Positions 1,045 through 21,089 of a stretch of 21,560 nucleotides of DNA are shown here, piece after piece. The DNA comes from a virus (taxonomy: Duplodnaviria; Heunggongvirae; Uroviricota; Caudoviricetes). The notes under the pieces are model-generated. The model ran no database searches. It saw nothing but the letters and a program-made list of their open reading frames with translations, and was not told the DNA's origin. The stretch lies in IMG/VR virus record IMGVR_UViG_2579779084_000006, one strand, 5' to 3'. A program made the position numbers and the translations under genes. The stretch's first letter is position 1. Each line of letters opens with the position of its first letter.

Positions 1045-1193
1045 AAAGTGCGCGCCTTGTGCTGGCTGTCATCCTGTTGTTTCTGGTAGTGGTGGTTGAT
1101 TTCACCGGACGACTGATATCGGTGCTGGCAGATGGTGTGCTGGTGGCGATGGCGCTGGTCGTGCTCCGGCCTTTACTGCGTAAATCTGAATAA
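1041..1193 (+). CDS. Small hydrophobic protein (50 aa), possible membrane partner of the upstream TerB-like gene
   Basis: GTG at 1041 overlaps the TerB stop (cTGTGAaa), GGAG 11 nt upstream. Translation VKSARLVLAVILLFLVVVVDFTGRLISVLADGVLVAMALVVLRPLLRKSE is almost entirely hydrophobic with a basic C-terminus. Absent from the supplied ORF track (short, GTG start); existence is uncertain. Confidence 0.3.
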   Translation: MKSARLVLAVILLFLVVVVDFTGRLISVLADGVLVAMALVVLRPLLRKSE

Positions 1194-1202
1194 CATCACA
1201 CA

Positions 1203-1240
1203 AAAGGCATCTGCGGATGCCTTTGACGGGGTGTTTTTTT
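1203..1240 (+). terminator. Hairpin plus T7 tract between the cargo genes and the lysis cassette; terminator-like or antitermination target
   Basis: Perfect 9-bp stem AAAGGCATC (1203-1211) / GATGCCTTT (1216-1224) with a 4-nt loop, then 9 nt, then TTTTTTT (1234-1240). A second weak hairpin (about 1243-1258) and a T-rich run follow before the AGGAGG RBS at 1271. Confidence 0.3.
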
Positions 1241-1280
1241 ACGGGTCGCTGGTGGCCCTTTTTTATTTTCAGGAGGAAGT

Positions 1281-1673
1281 ATGTCTGAACCCTTATCCGG
1301 TTCCGGCACGGCTGCTGCGCTGGGTGGCGCGACGGTATTCGGGCTGTTTACCGGAATGGATTTCGGGATTGTGTTTGGCGCGTTCGCCGGGGCGTTATTT
1401 GTGGCAACGATGCCACAGTCACTTTCAGTCTGGCGCGTGGTGGCACATTTTCTGGTGTCGTTTATTGTCGGCGTGCTGGGAGCGCGTGTGCTGTCAGCCT
1501 GGATTGCATCAAAAACAGGGTATGACGGTACATCAGCAGATGCGCTTTGCGCGGTGCTGGTCTCGGTGGTGTCGGTGAAGATTCTCTCGTTCATCCACCA
1601 GCAGGATATTGCATCGCTGGTGTCCGGTGTGTTCTCCCGCCTGCGGGGTGGAGGAGGCGGCAATGTTAAGTAA
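1281..1673 (+). CDS. Putative holin (multi-pass membrane protein, 130 aa)
   Basis: ATG at 1281 preceded by AGGAGG (1271-1276). Translation has three to four hydrophobic segments and a charged Gly-rich C-terminus (RLRGGGGGNVK). Sits directly upstream of the endolysin. Holin role inferred from topology and position only. Confidence 0.5.
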   Translation: MSEPLSGSGTAAALGGATVFGLFTGMDFGIVFGAFAGALFVATMPQSLSVWRVVAHFLVSFIVGVLGARVLSAWIASKTGYDGTSADALCAVLVSVVSVKILSFIHQQDIASLVSGVFSRLRGGGGGNVK

Positions 1674-1938
1674 CCTTCCCGGATTGCTGAATGTGGCGTT
1701 ATGCACGGTTATCGTGCTGACGCTCTTTTTTTATCGTCGCCGTGATTCCAGACATAAACCGCTGGTGTCATGGCTGGCCTGGCTGCTGATGCTGCTGTAT
1801 GCCTTTGCGCCCCTCAGCTATCTGTGTGGTCGCCCGTTAGCAACGGGCTGGCTGGAAGTGTTTTTTAACCTGCTGTTCTGCGTGCTGGTGATACGCGCAC
1901 GCGGGAACGTCACAAAAATCTTTCCATTGTTGAGGTGA
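1663..1938 (+). CDS. Second lysis-cassette membrane protein (91 aa), possible holin or antiholin partner
   Basis: ATG at 1663 preceded by GGAGGAGG (1650-1657); overlaps the end of the upstream gene by 11 nt. Translation MLSNLPGLLNVALCTVIVLTLFFYRRRDSRHKPLVSWLAWLLMLL... has about three TM segments. The track ORF from 1609 is the same frame with an unsupported upstream start. Confidence 0.5.
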   Translation: MLSNLPGLLNVALCTVIVLTLFFYRRRDSRHKPLVSWLAWLLMLLYAFAPLSYLCGRPLATGWLEVFFNLLFCVLVIRARGNVTKIFPLLR

Positions 1939-1940
1939 AT

Positions 1941-2318
1941 ATGCCGGGTAAATTCAGATTCAGCCGTCGCAGTGAAAAAAATCTGGAGGGTGTCAAACCA
2001 CAGCTGGTTGCTGTAGTTCGCCGTGCGCTGGAGCTGACGGAGGTTGATTTCGGTATTACGGAAGGCCTGCGCAGTAAGTATCGCCAGAAACAGCTGGTTG
2101 CGGAAGGGAAAAGCCAGACCATGAACAGCCGCCACCTGACCGGTGATGCGGTGGATGTTGTGGCCTACATCGGCAGCCAGGTGTCATGGGAGTGGCCTCT
2201 GTACGAGAAAATCGCACAGGCATTTAAGCAGGCTGCCGCAGAGCTGGGGATCGCTATCGAATGGGGCGGGGACTGGAAAACGCTGAAAGACGGACCTCAC
2301 TTTCAGCTGAAGCGATAA
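1941..2318 (+). CDS. Endolysin, peptidase M15-type (L-alanyl-D-glutamate peptidase family), 125 aa
   Basis: ATG at 1941 with GAGGTG RBS at 1932-1937 (the track start at 1935 is a GTG two codons upstream). Contains the metal-ligand motifs typical of M15/VanY-like phage endolysins: SRHLTGDAVD (His-x6-Asp) and WKTLKDGPHFQL (His). Confidence 0.8.
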   Translation: MPGKFRFSRRSEKNLEGVKPQLVAVVRRALELTEVDFGITEGLRSKYRQKQLVAEGKSQTMNSRHLTGDAVDVVAYIGSQVSWEWPLYEKIAQAFKQAAAELGIAIEWGGDWKTLKDGPHFQLKR

Positions 2319-2327
2319 GTAAAACAA

Positions 2328-2364
2328 AACCCCGGCTGGGGGAACAGTCCGGGGTTGCATTTTG
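2328..2364 (+). terminator. Terminator-like hairpin after the endolysin
   Basis: 8-bp perfect stem AACCCCGG (2328-2335) / CCGGGGTT (2349-2356) with a 13-nt loop, followed by GCATTTTG. The large loop makes it only moderately convincing. Confidence 0.4.
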
Positions 2365-2436
2365 ATAAATCAGACATGGAGATAATTCATGCAGGTAAAG
2401 GATAACAATAAAACCTTTCTGAGTATAGGGGGCAGT

Positions 2437-2541
2437 ATGACACCTAAAGCAGCAAATATTGCCGGAATTATTCTTGCATTATCGGCAATGATCGGGGCAA
2501 TTGGTTTTGCGGTTGCAGTGATAGCATATGTTTGTAGATAA
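2437..2541 (+). CDS. Tiny single-TM peptide (34 aa)
   Basis: ATG at 2437 with strong SD AGGGGG (2427-2432) at 4-nt spacing. Translation MTPKAANIAGIILALSAMIGAIGFAVAVIAYVCR is one transmembrane helix with a short basic N-terminus. Not in the ORF track because of length. Confidence 0.3.
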   Translation: MTPKAANIAGIILALSAMIGAIGFAVAVIAYVCR

Positions 2542-2679
2542 GACAGAAAATCCGGCGAATCTCTGCCTTATCCGGGCGGTGACTTTTGTCATTAAGTGGA
2601 TGGTGGTTGGCATCGCCGTGTCTCCGATGCTGTATGGGCTGGCAAAATTGATTGTTGCTCTGAAATCGTGAGTGGTGAT

Positions 2680-2862
2680 ATGACGCGAAAACACTGGACA
2701 CACAGAATGCCGCGAACGGCGGTGAAACGGGCACTGGTAGCGATACTGGTGCCTTTTTTATTGGTGGGGTGCGTCAGTCTGGATAAGGCGCGCCAGCTTT
2801 TCGATACCGCGTCTCAGGTCTGTGAAATTGTCGACGGTGTTCGGCAATGTCTGCAGAACTGA
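2680..2862 (+). CDS. Small lipoprotein (start at 2680 or 2707), 52-61 aa precursor
   Basis: In-frame ATGs at 2680 and 2707; from 2707 the product MPRTAVKRALVAILVPFLLVGCVSLDK... is a textbook lipoprotein signal peptide (basic n-region, hydrophobic core, lipobox LLVGC). The mature part is about 30 aa with two more Cys. The track start at 2596 (GTG) is probably an over-extension. Confidence 0.45.
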   Translation: MTRKHWTHRMPRTAVKRALVAILVPFLLVGCVSLDKARQLFDTASQVCEIVDGVRQCLQN

Positions 2863-3033
2863 TCGCCTGTAAGAGCAGAATATTTTGCTGAAAAATGAAG
2901 GATGCGCCAGCGTCCGGTAAGCATGAAATTCTGTGTTTGTGGCTACTCAATAAAATAAATTCTTTCTGTCGCCGCGAATACTCAAATGTTGATCAGTGCC
3001 CGGTGCGGCGACGGGCTTCGATATCAGGAGACG

Positions 3034-3333
3034 ATGATGGAAAAAACAGAAAACAAACCGATTGTAATTGGTGCTGATGCTGCTCCGTTTAAGTTTGAGT
3101 TGTCTCAACTGGTGGAGATGCGTATCAGTGATGAATGGGGTGAGGTTAAAGCCCGCGCGCAGTATACGGATGGCGAAAACCAGTACTTGATCCACTACAA
3201 AGCAGCTGATGGTCGCGCCACGACGGAGTGGTTTGGTGAGTCAATGCTGGAAGCAACAGAAGATGATCGTCATCCGGGTTGTCCGGTATTTGCCGGTATG
3301 AAATTACCGGAAGGCGCAGTTGTTACTGAGTAA
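3034..3333 (+). CDS. Hypothetical acidic protein, 99 aa
   Basis: Tandem ATGs at 3034/3037 preceded by AGGAG (3026-3030). The track start at 2986 lacks an RBS. By my count 19 Asp/Glu versus 10 Lys/Arg. No recognisable motif. Preceded by a 170-bp AT-rich gap. Confidence 0.55.
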   Translation: MMEKTENKPIVIGADAAPFKFELSQLVEMRISDEWGEVKARAQYTDGENQYLIHYKAADGRATTEWFGESMLEATEDDRHPGCPVFAGMKLPEGAVVTE

Positions 3334-3394
3334 CAGGCATTACAGCAGCCCTTCAGTGAGGGGCTGCGATAATGTCGGTATTAAGGAGATTCCA

Positions 3395-3745
3395 ATGCCA
3401 TCACGAATACCCCGCGCCTGTCGTAAGCGTGGATGTGCAGGCACAACAACAGACAGTTCGGGTTACTGCGATAAGCATCGCGGTGAAGGCTGGGTACAGC
3501 ACCAGCGCGGACTGAGCCGCCACCAGCGTGGCTATGGCTCAAAATGGACGGTGATTCGTGCCCGTATTCTGAAGCGCGATAAAGGTCTGTGTCAGTTGTG
3601 TCTGCGTGCCGGTGTGGTGAGCGAGGCGAAAACCGTCGACCACATCATCCCGAAAGCGCATGGCGGAACAGACGCAGACAGCAACCTGCAGAGTCTGTGC
3701 TGGCCCTGCCATAAAGCGAAAACAGCGCGCGAACGAATCAGGTGA
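3395..3745 (+). CDS. HNH endonuclease (packaging-associated), 116 aa
   Basis: ATG at 3395 with AAGGAG (3383-3388) at 6-nt spacing. Translation has an N-terminal Cys cluster (CRKRGCAG...GYCDKH) and the HNH core VDHIIPKAHGGTDADSNLQSLCWPCHKAK. Positioned immediately upstream of the terminase genes, as in HK97-like phages. Confidence 0.85.
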   Translation: MPSRIPRACRKRGCAGTTTDSSGYCDKHRGEGWVQHQRGLSRHQRGYGSKWTVIRARILKRDKGLCQLCLRAGVVSEAKTVDHIIPKAHGGTDADSNLQSLCWPCHKAKTARERIR

Positions 3746-20130: not shown

Positions 20131-21089
20131 TGGATTCGTTACAGGATGATTATACAAAGCTGCTGTACGGACTGATGCCGCCGGGGCCTGCATGGAGCGA
20201 TACCGACGGCGTGCTTGATGGTCTGGCACCATCGCTTGTACGTGTTCATCAGCGGGCTGATGAACTGATGGCTGAAATCGATCCTGGTCAGTCAACAGAG
20301 CTGATTGAACGTTATGAAGAATTGTATGGTTTACCTGACACCTGCTCTCCTGTTGGAGCCCAGACATTACGCCAGCGTCAGCAACGGCTGGAAGCAAAAG
20401 CCAATGTGGCTGGTGGCATAAATGAGCAGTTCTTCCTGGAGCAGCTTGAGGCGCTGGGATATACCGGCGTGACGATCGAACAGTTCCAGCACCTGGATGC
20501 AAGCCCCGATCCGGAATGGGGTGATCGCTGGCGTTATTTCTGGCGTGTGACGTTGCCGGTGGATGCCGGTGCTCAGTGGCAGACATGTTCGGACACCTGT
20601 AACACACCGATCCGGACGTGGGGTGATACGGTTGCGGAGTGCGTGATTAATAAATTATGTCCGTCGCATACTGTTGTCCTTTTTGCATATCCGGATGAGT
20701 CTGGTGAAGGGCAACAAGCCGCCCTGACTATAAACAGCCTCTCCTTTCAGGCCGGACACAAGACGACTGAGCCATTAGCGATTAATCATACAGGTGTTCA
20801 TTTTGCGGTTGTTCCGGCACTGACAGGTAAGCCGCTGACAATTAACCGGATTAACTTTTATGCCGCCCGTCCGATGGCAGAACCACTGGTACTCAGCAGG
20901 GCGCAATTGCACTCAGGTCTGCCGACAACGGACCCCATGACCATGAACAGCGCACAGTTGCAGACGGGATACAGGACCCGCTCCCCCGTACCGGTTAACA
21001 GTATGCAGTTGCAGACAGCCAGCAGAACCCGTGAACCGTTATTGATTAATCACCCGGGACTGCATTTTGCTGTGGTCACGTCCGAATGA
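20130..21089 (+). CDS. Tail protein (Mu gp48 / YmfQ-like family) with repeat-containing C-terminal extension, 319 aa
   Basis: TAATG overlap with the J-like gene. N-terminus MDSLQDDYTKLLYGLMPPGPAWSDTDGVLDGLAPSL resembles gp48/YmfQ-type proteins that follow J in Mu-like clusters. The C-terminal 110 or so residues are degenerate repeats. Confidence 0.72.
   Translation: MDSLQDDYTKLLYGLMPPGPAWSDTDGVLDGLAPSLVRVHQRADELMAEIDPGQSTELIERYEELYGLPDTCSPVGAQTLRQRQQRLEAKANVAGGINEQFFLEQLEALGYTGVTIEQFQHLDASPDPEWGDRWRYFWRVTLPVDAGAQWQTCSDTCNTPIRTWGDTVAECVINKLCPSHTVVLFAYPDESGEGQQAALTINSLSFQAGHKTTEPLAINHTGVHFAVVPALTGKPLTINRINFYAARPMAEPLVLSRAQLHSGLPTTDPMTMNSAQLQTGYRTRSPVPVNSMQLQTASRTREPLLINHPGLHFAVVTSE
20769..21077 (+). 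repeat. Intragenic degenerate direct repeats in the 3' part of the gp48-like gene
   Basis: DNA units at about 20769-20813 and 21033-21077 are roughly 70 percent identical by eye, encoding EPLAINHTGVHFAVV and EPLLINHPGLHFAVV. A second motif pair, NSAQLQTGYRTR and NSMQLQTASRTR, lies at about 20944-21030. Confidence 0.5.

Follow-up and report, generated by a model that had tools for sequence, protein, structure and literature searches.

The stretch of 21,560 nucleotides in the IMG/VR record IMGVR_UViG_2579779084_000006 (Caudoviricetes), analysed here over its full length as the window, matches a prophage of Escherichia coli E30 with 100% identity and shows about 94% identity across the lysis genes to the Shiga toxin 2e (Stx2e) phage phiP27. 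Its lysis cassette contains two overlapping genes encoding holin-like membrane proteins, a gene encoding a soluble M15 peptidase endolysin and three small open reading frames (ORFs): ORF50 and ORF47, which encode small membrane proteins, and a gene encoding a lipoprotein precursor, which is the main subject of this analysis (Table 1). An earlier reading of the DNA made from the sequence alone, hereafter the sequence-only reading, had reported that a canonical Rz/Rz1 spanin pair is missing and had considered the lipoprotein as a possible outer-membrane spanin subunit (o-spanin). All the features that it described are present where it placed them. An Rz-like inner-membrane subunit (i-spanin) gene is missing from the window and likewise from the entire E30 prophage and the entire phiP27 genome, and the lipoprotein is the sole o-spanin-like candidate. 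Comparative data support each of the three small ORFs as a real gene, with two start codons corrected. Since phiP27 shows a Q-like antiterminator gene upstream of this region, together with tRNA genes and a toxin slot, the small-ORF region is assigned to the late operon, and a crude scan of positions 1100-3500 gave no sigma-70-like promoter sites on either strand.

Table 1. Coordinates of the lipoprotein gene, of the other features of the window and of the sites compared in other loci (window positions, unless a locus is named).
Feature	Position	Strand	Match or remark
Lysis-cassette lipoprotein precursor, 60 amino acids	2680..2862	+	phrog_7528, E 3e-36; sole lipobox ORF in the window (all six frames of 21.5 kb)
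Lipoprotein signal peptide	codons 1-30
Cys31, predicted lipidation	2770-2772
Mature lipoprotein, 30 amino acids	2770-2859
Terminator-like RNA hairpin and U-run within the signal-peptide coding region	2729..2763	+	z -4.4
ORF50, small single-transmembrane protein	2389..2541	+	phrog_12997, E 2e-7; RefSeq WP_164725614
ORF47, small membrane protein with replaced N-terminus	2528..2671	+	phrog_1115/4493/3246, E 4e-16
354-bp module (hairpin, ORF50 and ORF47), mobile by comparison	2326..2679	+	96.9% nucleotide identity to L091/L092 3799-4152
Terminator-like hairpin 3' of the endolysin, 5' edge of the module	~2328..2356	.	plus strand -21.2 kcal/mol, z -4.2
24-bp boundary sequence just 3' of the lipoprotein stop	2874..2897	.	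100% match to L091/L092 3709-3732, L004 and L005
Phage_holin_8, holin-like membrane protein, first gene of the lysis cassette	1281..1673	+	PF16931, E 3e-23; phrog_198 holin
Phage_holin_3_7, second holin-like protein, overlapping the first	1663..1938	+	PF05449, E 1e-21; phrog_217
Soluble M15 peptidase endolysin	1941..2318	+	Pfam Peptidase_M15_4; phrog_465, E 4e-75; RefSeq 'M15 family metallopeptidase'
tRNA genes to DUF3927/TciB-like gene	190-1193
TerB	619-1044
DUF3927/TciB-like	1041-1193
ORF after the lipoprotein gene	3037-3333		98 amino acids; phrog_1935
Lipoprotein pseudogene of GER2	L008 ~3426-3593
SPFH-domain lipoprotein	L111 15337-16164; L110 2480-3307		E30 prophage; phiP27
phiP27 annotation sites	L002 3074-3268, 3356-3511; L110 20348-20861
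Lone ORF50 homologues, tail/baseplate regions	L090 4001-4150; L105 5320-5490		Citrobacter prophage; IMG/VR contig; each followed by a related 115-amino-acid gene
Chimera comparison sites	P0129; L003 2552-2665; window 2528-2671
Further small single-transmembrane ORFs	L004 3135-3266; L005 2751-2980; L088 3862-3996
Compact cassette labelled E. coli DH5alpha	L109 3949-5183		NZ_CP026085.1

The sequence-only reading had described a lipobox-containing lipoprotein with two alternative starts, at 2680 and 2707; the lipoprotein, with the lipobox LVGC, is confirmed and its start is at 2680, not at 2707. Homology to the relatives begins at the ATG at 2680 across more than eight different upstream contexts, the extension MxRKHWTHR is conserved, and Met10, encoded at 2707, is T, V, I, A or Q in the homologues. 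The 51-amino-acid forms of RefSeq (WP_001138287) begin at this non-conserved internal Met. The signal peptide shows a 17-residue basic n-region, with six Lys/Arg and two His, followed by the h-region ALVAILVPFLLVG, and the lipobox is followed by Val at +2 and Ser at +3. None of the homologues has Asp at +2, so the protein is predicted to be sorted to the outer membrane after lipidation at Cys31. The mature peptide, CVSLDKARQLFDTASQVCEIVDGVRQCLQN, has a net charge of -1 and contains neither a hydrophobic segment nor a C-terminal transmembrane domain in its 30 residues; its hydrophobic residues at positions 4, 7, 10/11, 14, 17/18 and 21 show a heptad-like spacing, and Cys31, Cys48 and Cys57 are invariant in the family alignment. 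The gene is under purifying selection: its 55 variable sites are distributed 15/11/29 by codon position, and the ratio of nonsynonymous to synonymous substitution rates (dN/dS) is 0.11-0.42. In the more distant comparisons, dN is 0.03-0.06 for the signal peptide versus 0.27-0.43 for the mature part, and dN/dS of the signal half is 0.05-0.09. A decaying remnant is ruled out by the dN/dS of 0.1-0.4 across genera.

The signal-peptide coding region also contains a terminator-like RNA hairpin with a U-run. Codons 19-26 are near-invariant even at synonymous positions among 28 alleles, with two single-allele variants only. In the hairpin alignment 99.5% of cells are paired, and seven one-sided changes keep the pairing, with zero double compensatory changes. 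The hairpin is kept in a distant subfamily of the lipoprotein and is re-formed in another register in L108. The n-region is outside the hairpin and shows conservation at the protein level through synonymous changes. This hairpin might be an attenuator, or an element of mRNA processing or stability.

Homologues of the lipoprotein are present in Escherichia, Salmonella, Citrobacter and Cronobacter, and the gene is found in 315 of 5426 complete E. coli genomes. A word-indexed search gave 136 lipoprotein clusters at 90% identity, all of them at least 70% identical, and an exhaustive profile search of 1.84 billion representatives gave only 22 clusters at 50% identity. Among the best 80 of 269 lipoprotein-carrying loci of IMG/VR, a sample biased to close relatives, the gene is always at the 3' end of the lysis cassette, after the endolysin. 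The order M15 endolysin, ORF37 (a 37/57-amino-acid ORF) and lipoprotein is shown by 35 loci. Another 23 show the lipoprotein directly after the M15 endolysin, with a gap of mostly 14 nucleotides and no small ORF annotated between them. Nine loci show a GH108 endolysin, ORF37 and the lipoprotein, and eight show an ORF of 93 amino acids between the M15 endolysin and ORF37. Two loci contain a GH108 endolysin, an ORF47-like gene, a 44-amino-acid transmembrane ORF and the lipoprotein, one is of the window type, and two are outside these classes. The lipoprotein gene thus occurs with two endolysin types, and also with three holin arrangements. In the most diverged members its ATG overlaps the stop codon of the GH108 endolysin (ATGA), and the distant subfamily, with the pattern C-x3-EKAR-x-W[FL]..VC-x9-C, is located 3' of an M15 endolysin behind a different, single holin of 115 amino acids. 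The downstream packaging modules vary, with terL at 100%, at about 40% or absent; since these modules differ, it is the lysis module, and neither the packaging nor the tail genes, with which the lipoprotein gene travels. A compact holin-holin-M15-lipoprotein cassette, with a Hok/Gef gene nearby, is located in a prophage of a genome labelled E. coli DH5alpha. Such a prophage is unexpected in K-12 DH5alpha, and the strain label may be wrong or the prophage may have been acquired.

Phages mEp390 and HK639 show the same cassette type as the window, with related holin pairs (about 40% identity) and an endolysin followed by a small i-/o-spanin pair, which consists of a 91-amino-acid i-spanin of phrog_1026 and an o-spanin of about 50 amino acids. 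In F1055, which has a related holin pair, a 179-amino-acid Rz-like protein is encoded 3' of the endolysin. In mEp390 and HK639 a gp53-like gene comes next after the spanin pair (gp53 itself in mEp390), and the lipoprotein gene has the same gp53-like neighbour in L100, L101, L105 and L106. Gene order in these cassettes shows the lipoprotein in the slot equivalent to that of the i-/o-spanin pair. Unlike the window, mEp390 and HK639 have a real type-II inner-membrane subunit, and the sequence of their o-spanin is not similar to that of the lipoprotein.

The partner of the lipoprotein was searched for on both strands of 95 lipoprotein loci, with all start codons, as a type-II membrane protein with an N-terminal transmembrane domain followed by a polar tail of at least 45 residues. 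There is no candidate in 94 of the 95 loci, and the only credible match is the Rz of GER2. GER2 has a normal Rz/Rz1 pair, and the copy of the lipoprotein gene downstream of it is a pseudogene, interrupted by two in-frame stops; this is the only case found of a copy beside a spanin. The DUF3927/TciB-like protein was rejected as a partner because it is missing from many loci. A 275-amino-acid SPFH-domain lipoprotein, the only other credible lipoprotein in the complete phiP27 and E30 prophage, is encoded in the early arm of both and has Asp at +2, with predicted retention in the inner membrane. It was set aside as inner-membrane partner, since its gene is on the opposite strand by int/xis and the lysis module is found on several unrelated backbones.

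PhiP27 has been listed as a phage with a 'separated' two-component spanin, formed by an 'i-spanin' at 20348-20542 (64 amino acids, 32 periplasmic residues and no coiled coil) and an o-spanin at 20706-20861 (51 amino acids, 30 mature residues) (Kongari et al., 2018; PMC6139136 and supplements). The listed o-spanin is the homologue of the window lipoprotein, with 94% identity. The listed 'i-spanin' ORF has a TTG start, is found in no other locus examined and is antisense to an unannotated reverse-strand ORF of 90 amino acids, which matches phrog_36812 end to end (E 5e-20). With a real gene on the other strand and no conservation of this ORF, the published pairing is concluded to be spurious and the lipoprotein an orphan. 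On this comparison, the lipoprotein is an 'o-spanin' that was already catalogued but mis-paired and that is actually partnerless, and phiP27 is no longer to be counted as a two-component spanin phage. The phiP27 annotation runs across the lipoprotein gene in a wrong frame, as P27p32.

The genes between the endolysin and the lipoprotein belong to a module that stops exactly at the lipoprotein ATG. In the lambdoid prophage loci L091-L095, this module is located between the Phage_lysozyme endolysin (R) and a normal Rz/Rz1 pair (PF03245/PF06085), and the entire module is found in 35 of the 5426 complete E. coli genomes. Its distribution identifies it as a horizontally mobile insert, with two small, predicted inner-membrane proteins that ride on the late lysis operon. 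Since it coexists with a normal Rz/Rz1 in the lambdoid prophages, ORF50 and ORF47 are best regarded as accessory proteins and not as spanin substitutes. The hairpin at the 5' edge of the module had been read as the endolysin terminator; the hairpin is confirmed, but the minus strand (-20.3 kcal/mol, z -4.1) shows a better U-run than the plus strand. At the other side of the lipoprotein gene, the 24-bp boundary stretch is the sequence found directly after the lysozyme R stop in lambdoid prophages and is probably a conserved junction for modular recombination between lysis cassettes.

ORF50 contains the 34-amino-acid transmembrane peptide of the sequence-only reading (2437-2541), which is a real ORF but most likely only the C-terminal part of the 50-amino-acid form, the one annotated in RefSeq. 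Compared with its Citrobacter homologue, ORF50 shows 26 mismatches, distributed 5/5/16 by codon position, and 23 changed codons lead to seven amino acid changes. The N-terminal extension KTFLxIGGxM is retained in three diverged homologues through five synonymous changes, and a motif similar to a Shine-Dalgarno (SD) sequence precedes the long start in all three. The protein has a single transmembrane segment at residues 27-44 (hydropathy 2.56). The word-indexed protein search gave only four clusters for ORF50 and five for ORF47, and tblastn of ORF50 against phage records gave no match, with low-complexity masking as the probable cause. ORF50 homologues are co-oriented in late operons in three contexts: the R-Rz gap, the tail/baseplate region of a Citrobacter prophage, and L105. 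The lone homologues at tail/baseplate sites suggest that the family moves between late-operon sites as a single small gene. Regulation of ORF50 as a type I toxin by an antisense RNA, an idea of the sequence-only reading, is highly improbable. As a hydrophobic peptide of at most 50 amino acids, ORF50 fits in size and hydrophobicity with Hok, Ldr, TisB and similar toxins; unlike them, it is embedded in late operons and has no detected antisense RNA gene or promoter of its own. The crude scan gave no promoter-like sites on either strand, the Rfam scan of 2200-3100 gave no match, with sub-threshold hits on the hairpin only, and ordinary translation is indicated by the conservation of the long N-terminal extension, which is preceded by an SD of its own.

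ORF47 was correctly translated in the sequence-only reading as an alternative-frame ORF; it is the sole open frame there, matches PHROG families and varies least at codon position 2. It belongs to the same family as ORF37, which is present in most relatives. In several lambdoid and Stx phages, the gap between R and Rz contains family members of 37, 57 or 60 amino acids, and one abuts the Rz start in GER2 and L091-L095. The 3' part of the ORF47 family is found in 1025 complete E. coli genomes, O157:H7 prophages included. The basic N-terminus KYKRxxLRL is common to the members of 57-60 amino acids and is omitted from the 37-amino-acid RefSeq calls. P0129 is a chimera of an ORF47 N-terminus and an ORF37 C-terminus, joined in the shared motif AAFAI(K/R), and points to recombination within this family of small membrane proteins. 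Searches of Pfam, NCBIfam, PADLOC and PDB sequences with the three small proteins gave nothing significant, and phrog_7528, phrog_12997 and phrog_1115/4493/3246 are all annotated as 'unknown function'. The gap between the endolysin and the spanin (or lipoprotein) of lambdoid and P27-like phages contains further families of single-transmembrane proteins of 31-44 amino acids (phrog_4906, phrog_6632).

These small genes bear on whether the lipoprotein is one half of a two-component spanin with a miniature inner-membrane subunit, ORF47/ORF37 or ORF50, as the sequence-only reading had considered and as Kongari et al. (2018) took to be the case in phiP27. In most loci, translation of the lipoprotein gene is coupled to that of ORF37 (…TGGTGGTGAtATG), and the position of the same ORF family at the Rz start of GER2 and L091-L095 may link it to the outer-membrane step. 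However, the extramembrane parts of ORF47 and ORF50 do not exceed 16 residues, the 23 loci with directly adjacent endolysin and lipoprotein genes, together with L100, L101 and L103-L109, have no known small ORFs between them, and ORF47 and ORF50 coexist with a full Rz/Rz1 in lambdoid prophages. With the phiP27 'i-spanin' ORF being antisense to a real gene and not conserved, a miniature subunit is very unlikely.

The lack of a partner makes the lipoprotein a directly testable candidate for a way out through the outer membrane that needs no spanin. It is quite possible that it is expressed late and performs, or contributes to, the last lysis step, the breaching of the outer membrane, with no phage-encoded inner-membrane spanin subunit. 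More tentatively, the 60-amino-acid protein might be a self-sufficient, one-gene outer-membrane disruptor, whose signal peptide or precursor would be the inner-membrane component. In such a mechanism the lipoprotein would act after the holin and the endolysin. The conserved signal peptide would stay in the inner membrane, either uncleaved, with the role of a signal-anchor, or cleaved but stable, and would supply the inner-membrane side, and the lipidated protein in the outer membrane would expose in the periplasm an amphipathic helix of 29 residues that contains the invariant Cys48 and Cys57. This periplasmic part could self-associate by its heptad-like hydrophobic face and by disulfide bonds and, with the wall gone and the membranes touching, the lipoprotein would destabilise or fuse both membranes.

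The comparison with known disruptors gives likenesses and differences. The lipoprotein resembles the lambda o-spanin Rz1 as a predicted outer-membrane lipoprotein at the end of the lysis cassette, with a small mature part (30 amino acids versus 40 in Rz1) and with conserved periplasmic cysteines, as in Rz/Rz1; such cysteines are a near-universal feature of spanins (PMC6139136). It differs from lambda Rz/Rz1 in having no i-spanin partner anywhere in the phage, and from Rz1 in a mature part that is helical in a low-confidence model and not proline-rich, in a signal peptide more conserved than the mature peptide, and in being homologous neither to Rz1 nor to any of the spanin families in PHROG. 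T1 gp11, a unimolecular spanin, is also the product of a single lysis-cassette gene and has a lipoprotein signal at its N-terminus. The window protein lacks the C-terminal transmembrane domain of T1 gp11 and, with a mature part of 30 amino acids, would be unable to span the periplasm as T1 gp11 does. The disruptin phiKT gp28 is likewise a small, single-gene candidate for spanin-independent disruption of the outer membrane with an amphipathic helix, but it is a cationic peptide of 56 amino acids with no signal sequence, unlike a lipoprotein with a mature charge of -1.

Several points weigh against a lysis role of this kind. A periplasmic peptide of 29 residues is far too short for an intact periplasm, the periplasmic domain of Rz having about 130 amino acids. 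No proven disruptor of the outer membrane is related to the lipoprotein in sequence: there was no match at E<=1 to Pfam Rz1 or Lysis_col, and phrog_1275, a 'Rz-like spanin' family, gave E 0.048 only, mainly over the signal peptide. The net charge of the mature part indicates that it is not disruptin-like, and the AlphaFold2 model built from the alignment of the lipoprotein is a single long helix of low confidence (predicted local distance difference test score, pLDDT, 66). The embedded RNA hairpin may account for part of the conservation of the signal peptide. The SerU-LTIIb cassette (holin1, holin2 and GH108), a partial record, contains neither the lipoprotein nor a spanin, so that the outer-membrane step may be dispensable or encoded elsewhere. 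Literature searches found no experimental work on the lipoprotein family, the constancy of gene order comes from the biased sample of loci described above, and a hitch-hiking late moron would show the same constant linkage to the lysis cassette.

Such a moron, unrelated to lysis and acting in exclusion or receptor masking (as T5 Llp and phi80 Cor) or in Bor-like virulence, would also be a small outer-membrane lipoprotein, encoded by a temperate phage close to its lysis or late genes. Lambda bor adjoins Rz/Rz1, small disulfide-containing outer-membrane lipoproteins are typical of exclusion proteins, and the flanks of these cassettes are moron hot-spots (TerB/DUF3927, stx2e, LT-IIb, KilA-N and small transmembrane genes). 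The GER2 copy shows, moreover, that the gene can sit downstream of a normal Rz/Rz1. On the other side, the lipoprotein gene has no match in Pfam, NCBIfam or PADLOC and, unlike Bor, Cor and Llp, it is neither in opposite orientation nor provided with its own promoter-like site, and it shares the strand of the lysis genes. Its linkage is to the genes for holin and endolysin and not to the variable tail, receptor-binding and packaging modules, and in some relatives it is translationally coupled to the endolysin gene or overlaps its stop codon. Related cassettes have their spanins in exactly the slot of the lipoprotein gene, which is never found together with an intact spanin, since the sole copy beside Rz/Rz1 is a pseudogene. 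A moron is thus unlikely, and the exclusion lipoprotein of the sequence-only reading is disfavoured. If the lipoprotein were only a moron, the P27-type cassettes would be left with no recognisable outer-membrane disruptor.

The main mechanistic rival of a disruptor that joins both membranes is an action like that of the colicin lysis proteins, or bacteriocin release proteins (BRPs; Pfam Lysis_col, PF02402), in which a stable signal peptide would permeabilise the envelope, for example via the outer-membrane phospholipase A, with no bridging complex. BRPs are 47-amino-acid precursors in which 19 residues form the signal peptide and about 28 the mature part, they activate phospholipase A, and they have signal peptides that are both lethal and stable (PMC2896534 and references therein). 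The window lipoprotein is in the same size class of very small lipoproteins (about 28-30 mature amino acids), and its signal peptide is the best conserved part and apparently functionally important, as in BRPs. A terminator-like hairpin is tied to the 5' end of its gene, as in ColE7 cel, the genes for colicin lysis proteins being located behind or around such a hairpin, and no partner gene was found in the 95 loci scanned, apart from the GER2 Rz, or in the complete phiP27 and E30 prophage. Against this similarity, there is no sequence homology, as the Lysis_col search indicates, and BRPs have neither the two additional invariant cysteines nor a helical mature peptide with heptad-like spacing. 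The window gene is in a phage lysis cassette and not in an SOS-controlled colicin operon, and BRP-driven 'quasi-lysis' is slow, with no built-in coupling to endolysin action. A BRP-like action is rated as rather improbable, and the model in which the signal peptide or precursor stays in the inner membrane is kept as the preferred, if tentative, mechanism.

In about 13-15% of the phages that infect Gram-negative hosts no spanin can be recognised, and their way of breaching the outer membrane has yet to be explained (PMC6139136; bioRxiv 10.1101/515445). The disruptin is the only alternative demonstrated so far. The lipoprotein family offers a tractable E. coli case, conserved, partnerless and in spanin position, which is present in inducible phages (phiP27 and phiSTEC1575-Stx2k) and in many sequenced strains. 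If the lipoprotein is an outer-membrane disruptor, it would be a fourth solution to the final step of Gram-negative lysis, after two-component spanins, unimolecular spanins and the disruptin, and the phages relying on it would be the Stx2e phage P27, prophages of the type found in enterotoxigenic E. coli H10407 and the prophages of about 6% of the complete E. coli genomes. Stx2e, LT-II and further toxins encoded by prophages are released under the control of lysis, so that the outer-membrane step bears on toxin release.

The 5' end of the window contains the end of a DNA methyltransferase gene and three tRNA genes (Ile, Arg and Arg), followed by the TerB-family gene and the gene encoding the DUF3927/TciB-like membrane protein of 50 amino acids. 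The TerB gene is found where phiP27 shows stx2e, which suggests that this cargo after the tRNA genes is in a moron slot with different contents in each phage. The lipoprotein gene is followed by the phrog_1935 ORF and by genes encoding an HNH endonuclease, a P27-type TerS, TerL, and head and tail proteins. The phrog_1935 ORF is located 3' of the lipoprotein gene in many relatives, not in all, and in others it is replaced by a gp53-like gene of 65-72 amino acids.

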